IMG/VR virus record: IMGVR_UViG_2648501392_000020
Source: a virus
Taxonomy: Duplodnaviria > Heunggongvirae > Uroviricota > Caudoviricetes
DNA: 10,109 nucleotides
Reading direction: 5' to 3' (one strand)
Shown: positions 2,438 to 9,699 of the stretch, one piece after another
Layout: the number at the start of each line of letters is the position of its first letter
Numbering within the stretch: the first letter of the stretch is position 1
Notes under the pieces: model-generated
What the model was told of the DNA's origin: nothing
Database searches by the model: none
What the model saw: only the letters and a program-made list of their open reading frames with translations
Position numbers and translations under genes: made by a program

Positions 2438-2821
2438 TCAACCAATCAACTTATAGCGACCATCCCGTGCATTGCGACGTACACGCTCAATCTTGAGGCA
2501 TAGCGCCGCATCTGGCTTTTTGGGGACAGGTACGCGGCAATATTCAGAAGCTCGAGGAATATTGTTTATCCAGTCGATCACTTCACTTAAATACCAGGCC
2601 TTACGCCCTTCCGTAACCTGTACGCGTTCGGGGAACTCTCCACGAGCCTCAAGGTTTAGCAATGTGCGACGGCTAAGGGTAGTAAGTTCCATCACCTGAT
2701 TCATATCAACAAGGCGTTCACTTAAACGCCTTTTGTCAGCAATAGCCTTTAATTCCTCTACTGCTGGATCCGGATACATCATTTCGGCAATTGGCTTAAG
2801 GTCATTGTAATGATTCTGCAT
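2438..2821 (-). CDS. AlpA-family (MerR-like HTH, excisionase/regulator type) DNA-binding protein with about 40-aa N-terminal extension
   Basis: ATG at 2821 with AAGGGGGA Shine-Dalgarno, 11 nt after the gpD-like stop. HTH block ELTTLSRRTLLNLEARGEFPERVQVTEGRKAWYLSEVIDWI fits the AlpA/Phage_AlpA pattern. Confidence 0.7.
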   Translation of the reverse strand: MQNHYNDLKPIAEMMYPDPAVEELKAIADKRRLSERLVDMNQVMELTTLSRRTLLNLEARGEFPERVQVTEGRKAWYLSEVIDWINNIPRASEYCRVPVPKKPDAALCLKIERVRRNARDGRYKLIG

Positions 2822-3183: not shown

Positions 3184-4230
3184 TTAGCCAATGCGAACGG
3201 TAACAAAACGATTGATGCGGGCCGGTATTGGCTGTGGTGCTGAATGTGTCTGCACATATTCAATAGCCGGATCACCAGGCACAATATAGTTTTTCGGTGC
3301 AAGTTCGGCTTTAGTCAGCCCCATCCGAATTAGCTCCGGATCCTGAATACCGCCATAAGCGACAATCCCCTGAAGAGCCGTATTGCCAAGCACCATCAAA
3401 TCAGGATCAAGGAAATATTTTTCAGTTCCGTCCTCGTCGGTATAACGCCCGCTGTAAACAACAATCGCAACATCGCCCATATACCCTTTAAAACTCACCG
3501 AATCACCAAGGTCTTTAAGGGCCGTTTCCAGTTCGGAATTAGAACCTCGACGGGTATCCAGAGCCTCTTTTACAGCTCTGAATGAGCGGTATTTTTTCCA
3601 TACATTGCCGCCCATAATAATGATATTAGTGACTCCCTCACTAAATTCTGCGTAGCTCTCAATATCATCATTTGGGTCAAAAGATCCTTTATCCTTACCT
3701 GACCACTCAGCACCGCCAGACTGAGTGATGATATTTTGTGGTTTAATATTCCAGTCCAGCTCATAACGTTCAATACCATCGCCCACAATGATATTTTTCC
3801 CTGTTGTAATTGCCTGAACGGCAAGCCATTCAATACGTGCACGTATAGCTTTAGCCTGATTTACAATCGCCTGTTTAACTTTAATATTACGCGCCCCAAA
3901 AGCATTGTATTGCTCAGGTGATACACCAGCAGGGCGCACAGCTAGCTTATTTGGATCAATGCTGCTTTTCGGTTTCATATAGCCAGGGCGAATTGTTTTT
4001 GATTCGTATCCCTCATCTCGTGAAACTTTACTGCCCACCATAGGAGAGCAAAACGCCGCGATCGGGATATTTGGATCGTCGATCGTATCAAGAATAATGT
4101 CTCTCGATTCAAACATTACCGAGCGAGTGAAAAACAAACTGGTAAACAACGCATTTAATTTTTTTTGCACATCTTCAGCATTAGCCACCTGCACAAGCTG
4201 TGTAGGCGAATATAAATCAACCATACTCAT
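3184..4230 (-). CDS. Major capsid protein, lambda gpE family
   Basis: Long blocks align with lambda gpE (ITQSGGAEWSGKDK...DPNDDIESYA, RSFRAVKEALDTRRGSNSELETALKDLG, GDVAIVVYSG, MVLGNT). Start chosen at ATG 4230 (MSMVDLY, as lambda MSMYTT) with AAGAGG Shine-Dalgarno. The ORF track start at 4311 is an upstream extension. Confidence 0.9.
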   Translation of the reverse strand: MSMVDLYSPTQLVQVANAEDVQKKLNALFTSLFFTRSVMFESRDIILDTIDDPNIPIAAFCSPMVGSKVSRDEGYESKTIRPGYMKPKSSIDPNKLAVRPAGVSPEQYNAFGARNIKVKQAIVNQAKAIRARIEWLAVQAITTGKNIIVGDGIERYELDWNIKPQNIITQSGGAEWSGKDKGSFDPNDDIESYAEFSEGVTNIIIMGGNVWKKYRSFRAVKEALDTRRGSNSELETALKDLGDSVSFKGYMGDVAIVVYSGRYTDEDGTEKYFLDPDLMVLGNTALQGIVAYGGIQDPELIRMGLTKAELAPKNYIVPGDPAIEYVQTHSAPQPIPARINRFVTVRIG

Positions 4231-5113: not shown

Positions 5114-5325
5114 GCCCACCTGTGCCCACTTTTTCTACCCACTTTTCATGGTTTCCCACTTCGTCCCACCTGGGATTTTGTGGTTTTATATCGTACTGTT
5201 TCATAAGAATTTTTTTAGTGCCCACTTTTTGGGATGTATACACGTGGGAAAGTGGGCGATTTTGTTAAATTCCAGTTAAATTACCCACTATTCCCACTTT
5301 TAACGCCCACTTTTTACAGTGGGTG
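5114..5325. repeat. Iteron cluster (CCCACT(TTT), at least 9 direct and 3 inverted copies); probable island replication origin
   Basis: cccac(t/c) at 5115, 5125, 5138, 5155, 5165, 5221, 5284, 5293 and 5306; inverted agtggg/gtggga at 5244, 5251 and 5318. Lies immediately 3' of the helicase-initiator gene. Confidence 0.7.
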
Positions 5326-6720
5326 AACATCATCCCCATCGACGCAAATCACGCCGTCTTTTTCCAGTTTGGCTAACCATCGTTTAAGGTGTTTTGTGTC
5401 ATATCCCAGCTTTTTCATGTCATCACGTAGCAGCGGGATCGTGCATTTATCACCATGCTGTATACGTGACCGGATACAACCCCATAAAGCCGTGTGATTT
5501 TCCGTCTTGTTCCCGGCCTCCTCTATGCGCTCCAGTTCAGCAGGGGCGCGGGGAACGTCAATCACCACCATGGACACGATTTCTTCACCCTCAGGATCCG
5601 TAAATACCTCCACGCTCTTAAGGTCGTAGGCGCTTTCTTTTGGCTCCTCCGCGTCCTTCATCTTCTTACATGCTGCAACCAGCGCCGTAGCCTCTGAATG
5701 TTCCCGACTGATTCGGAACTCAGCATCAAGCGCCGCACGGAATGCACTGGAACCCCGCGCCCCTTTCGTCTCATCCTTGCCGGAATGATGCACAACCAGA
5801 ACCGTGGCCCCCGTGGCCTGCTTTATCGCGTCACACCCCTGGATAAACGCCCCCATGTCGCGGGAGTCATTTTCATCATGACCACCAAAGCAACGGGCCA
5901 GCGTGTCAATGACAATCATCCGCACCCTTTCGCCCGTTCTGTCCTGCACTAATCCGGCGGTCCTGATAACCTGCTCCACATAGTCAGGCGATGCAGGGAA
6001 GACAGGCGCGTTAACGATGCACAAATCCGTAACCACCTTGTCGTGGGTTATCTCCCACGCCTTAACGCGGCGTTTTACGCCCATACTGCCTTCGCCAGCG
6101 ATATAGATAACCGCGCCCTTACTTACCCTGCGGCCTCCCCATGCCATACCTGTGGCAACATGACACGACCAGGAAATAGCCAGGAACGATTTATAAGAAC
6201 CGCTGGCCCCGTAGGTGCTGCATAATGATTCAGCCGGAATAAGCCCCTTAATTACGTAGCTTTGCTGCGCGTCGAATCCCTCAGAACCCCATGAGATGGG
6301 AAGTGTGATTTTTCGCTTTCCGCCATTCATGACCAGACTTTCCCCGCGTTCCCAGGTTTCTTTAAGTCGGGGTAGTTGCTCGCTCCAGTCCTCCAGTAGT
6401 TCGAAATTCTCTGAAAGTAACCGCGCTTCCCGGACACCTGCGATCGCCAGTTTGGTGGCAATGGTCAGCATCTGCATATCGTCCAGGTTTCCGGCGCGTA
6501 TGACCTTTGCTCTGTATCGTCCTTCATCAACAATCTGTAAATTGTCCAGTTCGCTTAACTGATAACGGCCCAGGTAAACCGGAGGGATGGGATCGCCTGC
6601 TTTTTTGGCCTGTGCAATCATGTAATGTTCTGCAAAGGAGTGAGCATTATCACCCGCAAAAATAACCGCCTCAGTGTGTTTATCTTTCGGTAACAGTTTT
6701 ACGTTCGGTGCCAGTTTCAT
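5314..6720 (-). CDS. RecA-fold replicative helicase / replication initiator (RepA/DnaB-like, AAA_25-type) with C-terminal winged-helix-like domain
   Basis: 468 aa. Walker A GASGSYKS, Walker B-like MIVIDTL, HHSGKD motif. C-terminal basic helical segment (LLRDDMKKLGYDTKHLKRWLAKLEKDG) adjacent to the iterons. AGGGG Shine-Dalgarno. Confidence 0.85.
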   Translation of the reverse strand: MKLAPNVKLLPKDKHTEAVIFAGDNAHSFAEHYMIAQAKKAGDPIPPVYLGRYQLSELDNLQIVDEGRYRAKVIRAGNLDDMQMLTIATKLAIAGVREARLLSENFELLEDWSEQLPRLKETWERGESLVMNGGKRKITLPISWGSEGFDAQQSYVIKGLIPAESLCSTYGASGSYKSFLAISWSCHVATGMAWGGRRVSKGAVIYIAGEGSMGVKRRVKAWEITHDKVVTDLCIVNAPVFPASPDYVEQVIRTAGLVQDRTGERVRMIVIDTLARCFGGHDENDSRDMGAFIQGCDAIKQATGATVLVVHHSGKDETKGARGSSAFRAALDAEFRISREHSEATALVAACKKMKDAEEPKESAYDLKSVEVFTDPEGEEIVSMVVIDVPRAPAELERIEEAGNKTENHTALWGCIRSRIQHGDKCTIPLLRDDMKKLGYDTKHLKRWLAKLEKDGVICVDGDDVHPL

Positions 6721-7016
6721 TTTTTACCCCTGAATCCGTTAATCATGGTTTTCAGCTTCTGGATGTTTGCCCGTGCCCTGGCGTTGCTGGTGGACACGTT
6801 ATGCGGCGCGGTCTGTACCAGAGAAAAATCACGCCGGAACTGATAAACAGGCATCACGCAATCATATTCGTAACCTTCACGGCGGTAGGTTACGCGCCGT
6901 TCTTCCACGCCCTTAATCATTACCGTGCCGCCGTACTGGTCGCGGTAAATATCGCCGCGCGTAAATTTAGGGTGAGTGTTGCCACTGGCAGTTAAGCCAG
7001 AATATTTAAGTTTCAT
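6717..7016 (-). CDS. Hypothetical protein, 99 aa
   Basis: ATG at 7016. Stop overlaps the helicase start by 4 nt (translational coupling). No family recognised. Confidence 0.55.
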   Translation of the reverse strand: MKLKYSGLTASGNTHPKFTRGDIYRDQYGGTVMIKGVEERRVTYRREGYEYDCVMPVYQFRRDFSLVQTAPHNVSTSNARARANIQKLKTMINGFRGKK

Positions 7017-7021
7017 TATTT

Positions 7022-7255
7022 TTATTCTCCGGTGTGCTGTTCTTTATATCTGTCGTGCAATAGATCTATTTCTTGCAGTTCCATTATTACAGGCTCAAGA
7101 AGCGTTATTAATGCTGTGGCAATTCTTGATTTTTGTTTGTCGCGTTCATTGTCGCCAAGTGTTTCAAGCCATATGCGTAATATTTCCATCATGCTTTCAC
7201 TGTGAGAAAGTGCAAGAAATGCGCGGTCTATTGTTTCGAGGTAAATATCACGCAT
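7022..7255 (-). CDS. Hypothetical protein, 77 aa
   Basis: ATG at 7255 preceded by GGTGGGG. The ORF track start at 7267 is GTG. 5-nt gap to the next gene. Confidence 0.5.
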   Translation of the reverse strand: MRDIYLETIDRAFLALSHSESMMEILRIWLETLGDNERDKQKSRIATALITLLEPVIMELQEIDLLHDRYKEQHTGE

Positions 7256-7256
7256 A

Positions 7257-7478
7257 TTAATCCCCACCCGTTGTTTTTCTTAAAACAGTTTCCGTTACGA
7301 AATCAGCATAGTTAGCGGCGATATCAAGAATATTTAGCCCTGTATCCCTATGCTCATCAGTGCAAAGAAAGAAAAAAGCCACCCGCATAATTTCAGATAT
7401 TGACGAAAGCGCATCAGCTGCATTATCAGGAACGCCGGAAAATTCCTGTTTCAGGGAATTAAAACGATCATCACGCAT
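7257..7478 (-). CDS. Hypothetical protein, 73 aa
   Basis: ATG at 7478 with AGGGGGG Shine-Dalgarno. Stop sits 1 nt before the next start. Confidence 0.55.
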   Translation of the reverse strand: MRDDRFNSLKQEFSGVPDNAADALSSISEIMRVAFFFLCTDEHRDTGLNILDIAANYADFVTETVLRKTTGGD

Positions 7479-7836
7479 GTTTACCCCCCTGAATGACCTG
7501 ATAACCGCAACTGGTCAGCAACTCGATAAATTCCGGCAGTGTGCCGAAACAGCAATCATCACGCAGCCGTTCGCAGGATACCTCGACGCCGTTTTCGTAG
7601 TGACTCACCATACATCCGGTAAAATGCAGATCATCATCGTGATGGCTCGTTGACGGCTTAATCAGTCGCGCACGTTCCGCCAGTTCCAGCAATGCTTCAA
7701 CGCTTCCGGCAATTGCACCATCCGGCAGGTGATAATTACGCACTATGCGCCCGTTCTCCACATTGACCAGCAACTGCCCGGTAAATTTCTCGTCAAACTG
7801 AATGCTGTTAAGGTCAGAAATTGACAGGTTATGCAT
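7471..7836 (-). CDS. Hypothetical protein, 121 aa
   Basis: ATG at 7836 with perfect AGGAGG 6 nt upstream. The ORF track start at 7854 lacks a Shine-Dalgarno. 8-nt overlap with the downstream gene. Confidence 0.6.
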   Translation of the reverse strand: MHNLSISDLNSIQFDEKFTGQLLVNVENGRIVRNYHLPDGAIAGSVEALLELAERARLIKPSTSHHDDDLHFTGCMVSHYENGVEVSCERLRDDCCFGTLPEFIELLTSCGYQVIQGGKHA

Positions 7837-8053
7837 GGTGCACCTCCTGCACATCAGCCATGATAATTTTTCCGGCCTTATCCAGTGCCTGATCGGCTTT
7901 TAGCTGCACAAATGCTAAATAATGGAAGATGCATTCTGATTCTCTGGCTGCGTGTTTATGCGCCCTGTCAGCAATAACAGAAATATCAATAAGCGCGTGC
8001 ATCAGCGTAGTGAGCGCGGCGGCTGCTGCGTCCGGTGTGGTTTTATTGCACAT
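7829..8053 (-). CDS. Hypothetical protein, 74 aa
   Basis: ATG at 8053 with GGGGGTAGG upstream. Overlaps neighbours at both ends as part of the coupled operon. Confidence 0.5.
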   Translation of the reverse strand: MCNKTTPDAAAAALTTLMHALIDISVIADRAHKHAARESECIFHYLAFVQLKADQALDKAGKIIMADVQEVHHA

Positions 8054-8249
8054 GGCCTACCCCCTGGCGAATACGGGCAGCGAATACCATCACGCAGCCA
8101 TCAGGAGATTGCTGACGCGCTTCCTGTTCGCTGGTGGCCTCAATGGTAATCACGCGCGGTTGTGCCGTGCTCAGGGCGATAAAACGCCAGATGTATTTAT
8201 TCAGGTTGTACGAGTCCCGCCCTTGCGGGTGTGTGGTATGATTTAACAT
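8043..8249 (-). CDS. Hypothetical protein, 68 aa; first gene of the leftward operon (shares frame with the tail of the 471-codon ORF)
   Basis: Internal ATG at 8249 with GAGGT Shine-Dalgarno 5 nt upstream, about 100 nt downstream of a TTGACA-N17-TAAAGT promoter-like element. Confidence 0.4.
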   Translation of the reverse strand: MLNHTTHPQGRDSYNLNKYIWRFIALSTAQPRVITIEATSEQEARQQSPDGCVMVFAARIRQGVGHVQ

Positions 8250-8347
8250 AGCTACCTCGATACTTTCGCTATCGTTGGTGGTTAGAAGCCCCGTTACTGC
8301 TCCTACAGTGCGGGGTTTCGTCGTTTCTGCACCTTGCATTAACAAGG

Positions 8348-8424
8348 TGTAAGTAACTTTATTTATAGGTGGCTTACATGTCAATGCTTTTATGTAAGAC
8401 TTTTTATGTGTATATTGTCTTACA
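8348..8424. promoter_or_regulatory. Divergent promoter/operator region: leftward promoter (-35 TTGACA 8379-8384, -10 TAAAGT 8356-8361 on minus strand) overlapped by four CTTACA/TGTAAG half-sites
   Basis: Half-sites tgtaag 8348-8353, cttaca 8373-8378, tgtaag 8393-8398, cttaca 8419-8424. Central palindrome CTTACA-N14-TGTAAG covers the -35. A TATATT -10-like hexamer at 8411-8416 faces the plus-strand gene. Confidence 0.5.
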
Positions 8425-8445
8425 CTTTCATTGAGAGGATTACAG

Positions 8446-8751
8446 ATGGCTACAGGTTCAAAAAACGCAAAATCACAATCACTGACAGCTCGGATCCCGC
8501 ATGATGTTATTGAAGGCATGGAATCCGTAAAACTGGACGGTGAAAGCAACGCCGGATTCATCGTAACCGCCATGCGCGGTGAAATCGCCCGCCGCCAGGC
8601 AGAAGGAAGCGGAGAAAACCTCCTGGTTTCTTCGCTCGATGCACTGGCGCAGGTGGAAAAAATCGGAGTCAAAGCAGCCGAGGAGATCGGGCAACTCATC
8701 ACCGTCGCGCGTGAAGAACTCCAGCGTCGCAAGGCCAAAGAGCAGGAGTAA
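8446..8751 (+). CDS. Ribbon-helix-helix-like small DNA-binding protein (candidate island regulator/repressor), 101 aa
   Basis: ATG at 8446 with GAGAGGA Shine-Dalgarno. N-terminal SLTARIPHDVIEGMESVKL...NAGFIVTAMRGEIARRQ fits a strand-helix-helix pattern; the C-terminal half is charged and helical. Composition is clearly more protein-like than the antisense frame. Confidence 0.6.
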   Translation: MATGSKNAKSQSLTARIPHDVIEGMESVKLDGESNAGFIVTAMRGEIARRQAEGSGENLLVSSLDALAQVEKIGVKAAEEIGQLITVAREELQRRKAKEQE

Positions 8752-8808
8752 CCATCACCAGCGCCGTGGTGTGAGTAACTACGGCGCATTGCTATGCAGG
8801 ACAACACA

Positions 8809-8982
8809 ATGACCGATAAAGAATTGACCAAAACATTATCACCGACACGGAAAAGACGGCGCAGAAAGATAGAGCATGAATCAGAAAGATTCGCGCCATG
8901 TGCTTTTGCCCTTGAGCAATTTCTTAAAGAGTACAGGGAAAAGCGCTCATTGCAGGTATGGCAACGAACTGAACCAGACTGA
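8809..8982 (+). CDS. Small basic hypothetical protein (about 57 aa)
   Basis: ATG at 8809 (alternative 8794) with weak AGGA upstream. Lies between the RHH gene and the plus-strand terminator. Lys/Arg/Glu-rich composition. Confidence 0.35.
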   Translation: MTDKELTKTLSPTRKRRRRKIEHESERFAPCAFALEQFLKEYREKRSLQVWQRTEPD

Positions 8983-9061
8983 TTGCATTGCCCACCAGCC
9001 GCAAATGTGGCATTGTTGGCGATGCTCATGCGTTGGGGATAACGTGTAGCTTGTGTCGAGG

Positions 9062-9090
9062 GGCCACCGTAGCGGGTGGCCTTTGTTTTG
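9062..9090 (+). terminator. Intrinsic terminator for the plus-strand RHH operon
   Basis: GGCCACC (9062-9068), loop gtagcg, GGTGGCC (9075-9081), then TTTGTTTTG (9082-9090). Confidence 0.6.
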
Positions 9091-9458
9091 CCTGTTATCC
9101 GGCAATTGTGGCGCTTCGCCACACGGTTGATATAATCCCACTGCTCAGATTCATTTTTTGCGCAGTAGGTTAATTGTTCACAAAGGCGCTCCGGCAACGG
9201 GGCGCTTTTTGTTTTTATTAGTTTGTAGAAACCTGACTCAGAGATAATGCTCATATTCTGATTGCCGTCAGGGGTGTAAGTTAAATTTACTCCCTTTTTA
9301 TCATCAAACATCTGCAACGCTCTGGCGTTAACAATATTGGTTTCACTCCCGCCAGTAAGGCCGGAAATAACCGGAATAATTTCGGCAAAATTTTGCAGAT
9401 TCTGTTTTTCAGGACGAACGAAGCCCCGCCCTTGTTCGGGAGAATATCCAGTATTCAT
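9084..9458 (-). CDS. Bro-N / antirepressor-like ORF, 5' protein-like portion only; the frame stays open to 8043, so the 3' end is undefined
   Basis: ATG at 9458. Segment GNQNMSIISESGFYKLIKTKSAPLPERL resembles the Bro-N core (ISESGLY.LI.RS..P.A). No plus-strand ORF competes in 9180-9458. Downstream, the same frame has Ser/Cys/Arg-rich antisense-like composition. Confidence 0.4.
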
Positions 9459-9510
9459 GGTTAGATCTCTGTATTAGTGGATGGGTGGCGGCTGTGTGCC
9501 GCCAGCCTGA

Positions 9511-9699
9511 TTAGTGAACTGCCTCGCAGCTTTCCTTCCATGCCAGAACTTCGGATAAAGACCAGCCAACGGAACGACCGCCGAGCTTACGCCGTGATGG
9601 GAATTGTCCGGTTTTTTCCAGGCGGTACCGACATGAACGGCTCAGGCCTGTAAGTTGCTGACATTCTTTTTCACGTATAAAGCGATCTGTGCTTAACAC
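9511..9699 (-). CDS. alpA: AlpA-family transcriptional regulator/excisionase-like protein, 62 aa, GTG start
   Basis: HTH block ECQQLTGLSRSCRYRLEKTGQFPSRRKLGGRSVGWSLSEVLAWKE matches the AlpA pattern. GTG at 9699 is preceded by AAAGGGGGA. The upstream ATGs at 9807 and 9867 lack a Shine-Dalgarno and would give an atypically long N-terminus. Confidence 0.65.
   Translation of the reverse strand: MLSTDRFIREKECQQLTGLSRSCRYRLEKTGQFPSRRKLGGRSVGWSLSEVLAWKESCEAVH

Follow-up and report, generated by a model that had tools for sequence, protein, structure and literature searches.

Six coupled small genes make up the first half of the early operon in an EcCICFT073-type phage-inducible chromosomal island of Escherichia coli

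The window analyzed here is a 10,109-nucleotide (nt) stretch of DNA deposited as IMG/VR virus record IMGVR_UViG_2648501392_000020, in which six small open reading frames (ORF1 to ORF6) occupy the minus strand between positions 6717 and 8249, directly upstream of a replicative helicase gene. On the basis of a near-identical annotated locus, the gene order of EcCICFT073 from strain CFT073, and domain matches, the window is a phage-inducible chromosomal island (PICI) from Escherichia coli, a phage satellite, of the EcCICFT073 type. We are confident that the six ORFs represent the front half of the early operon of a PICI of this family, with the mechanism and roles proposed below. Two of the six genes belong to named families, one of them experimentally characterized, and the other four are catalogued hypothetical families. 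An initial annotation, made from the sequence alone, had singled out the six ORFs as candidates for undescribed activities; as an arrangement, the block is already described, being the early region of the prototype Gram-negative PICI.

The six ORFs lie in an island of the EcCICFT073 type

The genes with which this analysis is concerned are as follows (lengths in amino acids [aa]; pI, isoelectric point; HTH, helix-turn-helix).

8043 to 8249, minus strand: ORF1, 68 aa, Icd-like, first gene of the operon (NCBIfam NF033153; phrog_6196; similarity to Icd of phage P1)
7829 to 8053, minus strand: ORF2, 74 aa, N-terminal part of a proposed two-part module with ORF4 (phrog_5146, E 1e-44; positions 1 to 74 of phrog_2512)
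7471 to 7836, minus strand: ORF3, 121 aa, an internal duplication of a unit of ~45 to 60 aa (phrog_340)
7257 to 7478, minus strand: ORF4, 73 aa, acidic (pI 4.5), C-terminal part of the proposed module with ORF2 (phrog_24341; positions 78 to 146 of phrog_2512)
7022 to 7255, minus strand: ORF5, 77 aa, acidic (pI 4.8) (phrog_2196, E 7e-41)
6717 to 7016, minus strand: ORF6, 99 aa, basic (pI 10.2), RgdR-family regulator (DUF4222, PF13973), ATGA coupled to the replicase gene
5314 to 6720, minus strand: RepA-family (AAA_25) replicative helicase, 468 aa (Pfam AAA_25, E 6e-43; RefSeq "helicase RepA family protein")
8446 to 8751, plus strand: divergent YlcI/YnfO-family gene (NCBIfam NF041551, E 7.8e-20; RefSeq annotation), divergent in most islands
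9511 to 9699, minus strand: alpA-type HTH activator gene upstream of the operon (Pfam Phage_AlpA, E 1.3e-17; RefSeq coordinates transferred from locus L001)

The identity of the element follows first from L001 (NZ_CP050998.1, strain F8704-2), an essentially identical annotated locus in which the window sits between smrA and abgR. The gene order there begins with an integrase gene (split by an IS4-like insertion sequence [IS] element), an alpA-type HTH gene, and a divergent YlcI/YnfO gene; continues with an Icd-like gene, four hypothetical genes, a DUF4222 gene, a RepA-family helicase gene, and an SSB gene; and ends with genes for a major capsid protein, a head decoration protein, an HTH regulator, and a small terminase. 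Domain scans of the window proteins recovered AlpA, AAA_25, lambda gpE, gpD, and Nu1. PICIs measure around 10 to 15 kb, and the smrA-abgR distance in L001 is ~12.4 kb, IS element included. They lack lysis and tail genes and carry a few genes for redirecting capsid formation and packaging, and the structural genes of this island are limited to gpE-like, gpD-like, and Nu1-like ones. Their integrase, alpA, and replicase genes lie in one orientation, as they do here, the integrase gene being outside the window, in L001.

The island is also syntenic, gene by gene, with the validated PICI EcCICFT073 (locus L002), for which helper-phage-driven induction, replication, and high-frequency transfer have been demonstrated (PMC6092414). 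The two share, in order, int, alpA, the divergent YlcI/YnfO gene, the Icd-like gene, four small ORFs, the DUF4222 gene, a replicase gene, the SSB gene, and the genes for a gpE-like capsid and a gpD-like decoration protein. Identity to the EcCICFT073 counterpart is 97% for ORF1, 86% for ORF5, and 95% for ORF6 but 74% for ORF4 and only 48% for ORF2. The islands differ in that a RepA-type helicase serves as the replicase here where EcCICFT073 has a primase, the 121-aa ORF3 takes the place of a 76-aa gene (family F, see below) in CFT073, PerC is absent from the window, and the CFT073 island is located at roxA rather than beside smrA.

The 1.5-kb block of six ORFs is 99.9% identical to three E. coli chromosomes, and parts of it were found in 1,784 of 5,426 complete E. 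coli genomes. It is essentially missing from 50,697 phage records, where the sole match (46 bp/49 aa) was in a 16.5-kb "phage," vB_KppS-Ant, and we therefore regard the block as satellite specific.

The operon is tightly packed and under purifying selection

Direct inspection of the window gave six minus-strand ORFs within 6717 to 8249, all starting with ATG and encoding 68, 74, 121, 73, 77, and 99 aa. The stop-to-start junctions from ORF1 to ORF6 are −11, −8, −8, +1, and +5 nt, and ORF6 and the helicase gene share 4 nt in the ATGA manner. G-rich or purine runs resembling Shine-Dalgarno (SD) sequences (GAGG, GGGGG, AGGAGG, GGGGGG, GGTGGGG, and GGAG) end 5 to 10 nt before the ATGs. The initial annotation had described six coupled ORFs of these lengths, with gaps or overlaps of 1 to 11 nt and with an SD sequence each; we reproduced the ORFs exactly, and the description is accurate. 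ORFs 3, 4, and 5 are acidic (pI 4.5 to 5.1), ORF2 is near neutral (6.3), and ORF6 is strongly basic. Hydrophobic stretches of membrane-spanning length are absent from all six, and a search of PDB sequences returned no solved relatives for ORF1, ORF3, ORF5, or ORF6.

To compare islands, we used a set of 13, comprising the window, CFT073, and 11 RefSeq loci. The comparison rests on E. coli islands; a cross-species search for contigs with RgdR gave two loci, from Shigella flexneri and E. albertii. In 13 of the 13, the Icd-like gene comes first, the DUF4222 gene comes last, and the replicase gene follows, which encodes a RepA helicase in some islands and a DNA primase or DUF927 protein in others. 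Between these fixed ends lie one to five middle cassettes per island, drawn from about five families and shuffled.

Family A-N (ORF2 in the window): 9 of 13 islands
Family A-C (ORF4 in the window): 9 of 13 islands
Family E (ORF3 in the window): 6 of 13 islands
Family D (ORF5 in the window): 10 of 13 islands
Family F (no member in the window): 5 of 13 islands
Family G (no member in the window): 2 of 13 islands

Pairwise ratios of nonsynonymous to synonymous substitution rates (dN/dS; Nei-Gojobori method), calculated for the window ORFs against their orthologues in other islands, ranged from 0.13 to 0.71 over all six and were mostly 0.15 to 0.45 (ORF1, 0.13 to 0.69; ORF2, 0.28 to 0.71; ORF3, 0.13 to 0.28; ORF4, 0.15 to 0.41; ORF5, 0.17 to 0.39), which implies moderate purifying selection of the kind usual for small accessory phage genes. 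Since the RefSeq starts of ORFs 2 to 6 at the near-identical locus are the same as those used here, all six ORFs match PHROG families (E 1e-28 to 1e-45), and dN/dS lies in this range, the ORFs are more than chance frames. That they are real genes upstream of a helicase gene in a phage satellite, as the initial annotation held, is thus borne out by PHROG matches, dN/dS, and PICI synteny, and all six proved to be conserved under purifying selection across islands.

Placement of small genes ahead of a replicase gene is familiar from satellite P4, in whose left (alpha) operon small genes such as epsilon precede the gene for the primase-helicase alpha. The likeness is one of position, with small accessory ORFs between an immunity region and the replicase gene. 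Only the AlpA, Pri-Rep, and Int proteins of E. coli PICIs are distantly homologous to P4 proteins (PMC6092414).

ORF1 is an Icd-like protein

No motif had been assigned to any of the six proteins in the initial annotation. That remains so for ORFs 2 to 5, but ORF1 is Icd-like and ORF6 belongs to the DUF4222/RgdR family. ORF1 scores 70.3 bits (E 1e-19) against the NCBIfam model NF033153 (phage_ICD_like), for which the cutoff is 25 bits, and Icd of phage P1 scores 52.6 bits on the same model. The two proteins align with 37% identity across 43 aa (E 1e-7), although tblastn searches of the phage collection at E 1e-3 did not recover the similarity. By these comparisons, ORF1 is an Icd-like protein, a homologue of the cell division inhibitor Icd of P1. 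(Mentions of "icd" in PMC10111431 refer to isocitrate dehydrogenase and are irrelevant here.)

The immI operon of P1 (c4 RNA, icd, ant1/ant2) resembles the operon described here in that a small gene with an Icd domain, matching NF033153 in both cases, stands at the head and overlaps its downstream neighbor, so that its translation would gate expression further down. The overlap between icd and ant1 of P1 is 4 nt, and icd is annotated as being required for ant expression, which provides a precedent for an Icd-type gene as a coupled operon leader. The two operons differ in that the leader hairpin here is a different one and the downstream genes are not antirepressor genes, in addition to the limited extent of the alignment.

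The reading frame of ORF1 is open for 408 codons further upstream, and RefSeq has a 172-aa version in L001. We nevertheless kept the 68-aa gene as the main ORF1 product; its start carries an SD sequence, lies downstream of the promoter, and is the annotated start in most related islands. At positions 3234 to 3755 of locus L019 (E. coli CAVP814), the first ~49 nt of ORF1 occur at 98% identity and are followed by a different continuation, annotated in RefSeq as an "ash family protein" pseudogene, and then by a separate Icd-like gene; the leader and the 5′ coding end therefore behave as a movable module.

A second system bears on the role of ORF1. In strain ECOR61, a six-gene prophage-like locus that includes an Icd-like gene and a DNA primase gene causes cell death when phage orf24 is expressed, and removal of the Icd-like gene abolishes death (bioRxiv 10.1101/2023.04.06.535777). 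The Icd-like protein of that locus is described as having a long N-terminal extension. For the roles that the initial annotation considered typical of this position in satellites (helper interference, derepression, or anti-defense), which would be candidate roles here, this locus is the nearest experimental indication. The architecture described there, an Icd-like gene with small genes and a primase gene, matches the operon analyzed here, which raises the possibility that the whole block is an abortive-infection or superinfection exclusion module in which a toxic Icd-like effector is sensed or gated by the small proteins and the replicase. We consider this conceivable but on the whole unlikely. 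The likeness to the ECOR61 locus is drawn from its described gene set and the Icd-like domain, and the effect in the reconstituted system was weak (bioRxiv 10.1101/2023.04.06.535777). Furthermore, PADLOC defense models, searched at E ≤ 0.1, matched none of the six ORFs, the one exception being an 11.7-bit hit of ORF4 to a methyltransferase fragment that we consider spurious. We therefore retain the reading of the block as the front half of a PICI early operon, to which the ECOR61 locus contributes an indication of what an Icd-like protein might do.

ORF6 is an RgdR-family protein

ORF6 matches DUF4222 (PF13973) with E 1.6e-24 and 85.7 bits (cutoff, 27). DUF4222 is the RgdR family, whose founding member, ECs1581 of the O157:H7 island OI-51, is 99 aa long with an RGD motif at residues 20 to 22, activates LEE1 and type III secretion, represses motility, and binds DNA nonspecifically in electrophoretic mobility shift assays (PMC3378721). 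C1493 of CFT073 is likewise active (PMC3378721), and RgdR is encoded by all E. coli PICIs analyzed (PMC6092414). ORF6 is 80% identical to ECs1581 (locus L018, strain Sakai) and 95% identical to C1493, and it shares with them its length, the RGD motif (R20-G21-D22), a core (residues 20 to 68) that is nearly identical in all three, and its place directly before the replicase gene. It has A at residue 10, as in C1493, and R at residue 45, as in the inactive ED1a variant. A role for ORF6 as a LEE1 activator and motility repressor is predicted from these orthologues, which are 80 to 95% identical to it.

The AlphaFold model of RgdR, built from 121 sequences, has a mean predicted local distance difference test score (pLDDT) of 77, rising to ~90 over residues 21 to 70, and comprises five strands and a short helix followed by a C-terminal helix. 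Fold comparison pointed to DUF1653 and FeoA, with Spt5 KOW and the RNA polymerase-interacting domain of CarD/CdnL reaching similar scores with looser alignments; Foldseek ranked Spt5 KOW domains first, and matches in BFVD were uncharacterized and DUF1653 proteins only. That RgdR might contact RNA polymerase is speculation prompted by this model.

The island that encodes the original RgdR, the capsid-forming O157:H7 island at positions 2732 to 6733 of L018 (Sakai Sp7/OI-51), has the same frame of an Icd-like gene at one end and RgdR and replicase genes at the other. It differs from the window in having cassettes of 61, 63, and 80 aa and a DUF927 replicase, and the position of the YlcI region is taken by a 247-aa gene.

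A candidate early promoter and a conserved leader hairpin precede ORF1

Two elements were located between the divergent YlcI/YnfO gene and ORF1.

8344 to 8428, minus strand: early promoter TTGACA-17-TAAAGT (−35 at 8384, −10 ending at 8356; 10 of 12 consensus matches) with TGTAAG(AC) inverted repeats, presumed operators
8279 to 8322, minus strand: hairpin conserved in the leader, with an invariant CUAAC(C/A)A tail behind it, upstream of the ORF1 SD sequence (identified by folding of island variants)

A consensus scan of both strands from 6600 to 9600 found three promoter-like sites, about the level of shuffled controls, of which TTGACA-17-TAAAGT was the best. Inverted repeats I1, I2, and I4 bracket this sigma-70-like site. 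When we examined the 200 nt upstream of the Icd-like gene in islands L002 to L016, we found differing palindromes around a conserved −35 hexamer (GGTGTACACC, GTGTTCAACAC, and GGTACGTACC elsewhere; TGTAAGAC in the window). Operators that differ in specificity would be expected to show such a pattern, which suggests several immunity specificities paired with YlcI/YnfO variants. The divergent YlcI/YnfO-type protein is the obvious candidate repressor of the early promoter. The operator-controlled promoter proposed in the initial annotation is thus supported as to the promoter-like site and its inverted repeats, but simple operator control does not agree with published reporter data for EcCICFT073, which show activation by AlpA (PMC6092414). 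In that island, AlpA activates its own promoter and a downstream ORF3-lacZ fusion, helper phages induce alpA, and AlpA overexpression leads to excision and to runaway replication dependent on int and pri (PMC6092414).

Although RNAalifold applied to a MAFFT alignment of the leaders gave only 6 pairs, folding of each sequence by itself showed a common hairpin: the nine variants found among the islands all adopt one extended structure (−15 to −23 kcal/mol) downstream of the −10 element. The arms carry compensating changes between islands (ACUG/CAGU versus AGUG/CACU; CCCCG/CGGGG versus CCCGG/CCGGG; GAAGCCCC.../...GGGGCUUC versus ACGCCCC.../...GGGGCGU). Of 19 loci, 17 have a single copy of the motif GGGCKTCTAACMA per island and L009 has two, and the motif lies just upstream of the Icd-like gene wherever it was mapped. 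The hairpin matches no Rfam family. Its succession by GCUUCUAACCA loosely recalls a boxB-boxA arrangement of the nut or rrn type, and the leader hairpin may be a nut-like or processing element.

The frame of ORF1 is open far upstream

8250 to 9458, minus strand: stop-free extension of the ORF1 frame, forming with ORF1 a 471-aa ORF (8043 to 9458)

The interval from alpA to ORF1 (466 to 1,261 nt) contains 0 or 1 in-frame stops in 11 of the 13 islands (the window, L002, L005 to L008, and L010 to L014) versus 8 to 28 stops in each other frame. It is therefore necessary to ask whether ORF1, rather than being a free-standing gene, encodes the C-terminal domain of a longer product (471 aa in the window) whose start lies immediately behind alpA. 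RefSeq carries extended (133- to 172-aa) or pseudogene "Icd-like" forms in this interval, and gene callers predict long proteins by the hundreds, an exhaustive search with the 471-aa ORF having returned 404 predicted proteins. Despite this, we think a long protein improbable. The extension crosses the early promoter and the covarying RNA hairpin and runs antisense to a bona fide YlcI/YnfO gene and to a 62-aa plus-strand ORF, and the compensatory changes in the hairpin result in radically different encoded residues. Where the extension shows conserved blocks in distant relatives, these fall on nucleic acid elements, namely, the antisense of the YlcI N-terminal domain, the −35 hexamer, the hairpin, and CUAACCA (the −35 TTGACA reads "LTC" and CUAACCA reads "LLTTN"), and the N termini of these long forms are mutually unrelated. 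The short form, with its conserved SD sequence and ATG, is the one annotated in most islands. dN/dS is of no help in choosing the strand, as the YlcI frame and the antisense long ORF are codon aligned and give values of 0.30 and 0.32, respectively.

The N-terminal part of the long ORF (9100 to 9458, minus strand) is weakly BRO-N or antirepressor-like (Pfam, E 0.012; PHROG Ant families, E ~1e-4), and RefSeq labels the equivalent region a BRO-N pseudogene in L006, whereas L015 has an intact gene of 186 aa there. These matches give 9100 to 9458, which separates alpA from the early promoter, the appearance of what is left of an antirepressor gene. Candidate explanations of the open frame are a long form made by read-through from alpA or selection for continuous translation against polarity. 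On the plus strand, two strong terminator-like hairpins (9059 to 9084 and 9182 to 9209; stems of 10 and 12 bp with T runs behind them) are located downstream of both the YlcI/YnfO gene and the 62-aa ORF, at positions that fall within the minus-strand frame lacking stops.

ORFs 2 to 5 are shuffled cassettes

ORFs 2 to 5 gave no match in Pfam or NCBIfam, and their PHROG families are all of unknown function. A collection of 5.8 billion proteins yielded few homologues of ORF3 (70 clusters) and ORF4 (74 clusters), and their named sources are E. coli, Shigella, Salmonella, or E. albertii, those of ORF3 being E. coli, Salmonella, and E. albertii only.

ORF2-like and ORF4-like genes occur together in 9 of the 13 islands and are both missing from the other 4. 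In the O157:H7 island L012 (4032 to 4496), they are represented by a fused 154-aa protein, in which ORF2 aligns to residues 1 to 73 and ORF4 aligns to residues 78 to 145, and phrog_2512 has the same architecture; the fusion was not among the homologues returned from the protein collection. Because of this strict co-occurrence and the fusion (Rosetta stone evidence), ORF2 and ORF4 appear to act together, and the two proteins should interact. The halves of ORF3 align to each other with 34% identity (E 1e-5), single-unit relatives of 66 to 70 aa exist, and natural variants are deleted exactly between the repeats. By these alignments, ORF3 consists of two tandem copies of a unit that is found elsewhere as a gene by itself. 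ORF5 lies directly before the DUF4222 gene in each of the 10 islands that have it.

Since these genes are always directly upstream of the replicase gene and are translationally coupled, ORFs 2 to 5, and perhaps RgdR, might be replication accessory proteins that, for instance, bind the origin, load the helicase, or act as primosome adaptors and that share their expression with the replicase because they work with it. RgdR would fit such a role in that its gene overlaps the replicase gene in the window and adjoins it in 13 of the 13 islands and in that the protein is basic and binds DNA nonspecifically (PMC3378721). Against this stands the distribution of the cassettes. ORF2, ORF3, and RgdR precede a helicase here, but proteins 100% identical to them are found ahead of a primase in L005 or L006 (both L005 and L006 in the case of ORF2 and ORF3), DUF927 replicases carry other sets, and islands function with a single middle cassette at the least (L015). 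Cassette content is thus uncoupled from replicase type, which argues against a replicase-specific accessory role. In addition, no ORF showed any likeness to known loader or initiator families in Pfam, NCBIfam, PHROG, or, for the four ORFs named above, PDB sequences; assignment to a replication accessory family, an outcome that would have spoken against the initial annotation, was found for none of the six. We consider a replication role quite unlikely, and our best guess is that ORFs 2 to 5 modulate the helper or the host.

The idea that the island is defective and that some of its six ORFs are spurious or in decay, to which the IS-interrupted integrase gene of the identical island and the frameshifted or internally stopped middle-cassette copies in L009 and L011 might lend color, is scarcely credible in view of dN/dS values well below 1 for all six, intact orthologues in many genomes, SD-like sequences, and PHROG matches.

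Other features of the window

The packaging module contains a second AlpA-family HTH gene (2438 to 2821, minus strand; 127 aa; Pfam Phage_AlpA, E 1.4e-8), placed between the decoration gene and the small terminase gene (1694 to 2248). Between this HTH gene and the small terminase gene lies a near-perfect hairpin of ~87 nt (2258 to 2344), which might be a cos/packaging or terminator element. The only Rfam match in the window on either strand, mir-3910, coincides with this long hairpin and is spurious.

A working model for the early operon

We propose that the operon works as follows. Helper-phage development turns on alpA, as is known from EcCICFT073. AlpA would then activate early transcription, with the transcript arising from the promoter at 8356 to 8384, by read-through from alpA, or both. 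A single polycistronic mRNA would be produced, and coupling over the overlapping stops and starts would, by analogy to P1, yield the six proteins and the helicase together and in order. By analogy to P1 Icd and the ECOR61 locus, ORF1 would most likely arrest or poison host division during island replication. ORF6 (RgdR), as a small basic beta-barrel protein, would reprogram host transcription, and ORFs 2 to 5 would serve as satellite-specific, exchangeable effector cassettes, with ORF2 and ORF4 forming one two-part unit and ORF3 being a duplicated single-domain protein.

Several observations weigh against this model. Rfam searches of the window at E ≤ 1 and of positions 8200 to 8460 at E ≤ 10 found no C4/IsrK-type antisense RNA, and the regulatory analogy with P1 is incomplete because no P1-type C4 RNA was detected. 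The AlphaFold model of ORF3 is unusable (pLDDT 44), so that no fold was obtained. The integrase gene of the F8704-2 island is interrupted by the IS4-like ISVsa5 transposase gene (L001 12351 to 14918, beyond the right end of the window); this copy is probably excision deficient and may be immobile. Finally, the open frame upstream of ORF1 may point to the production of a longer form of the protein as well.

A bolder proposal, which we regard as doubtful, is that the head of the operon constitutes an undescribed induction switch, consisting either of translated alpA read-through that protects against polarity or of a BRO-N...Icd fusion made only on induction, together with a nut- or processing-type RNA element, and that the shuffled cassettes (ORF2 plus ORF4, ORF3, and ORF5) are helper-specific effectors.

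In practice, these findings serve mainly to correct the annotation: in place of six unknowns, the region should be given as the early operon of a PICI, containing an Icd-like gene and rgdR. The truly open questions are narrowed to four small proteins and are given a testable structure, and the independent movement of the cassettes relative to replicase type argues against a role for them in replication. RgdR alleles matter for virulence regulation in enterohemorrhagic E. coli, and the window allele (RGD, K35, R45) is close to tested variants. How AlpA-dependent induction is passed on to the replication genes of Gram-negative PICIs might find its explanation in the stop-free frame and the leader hairpin.

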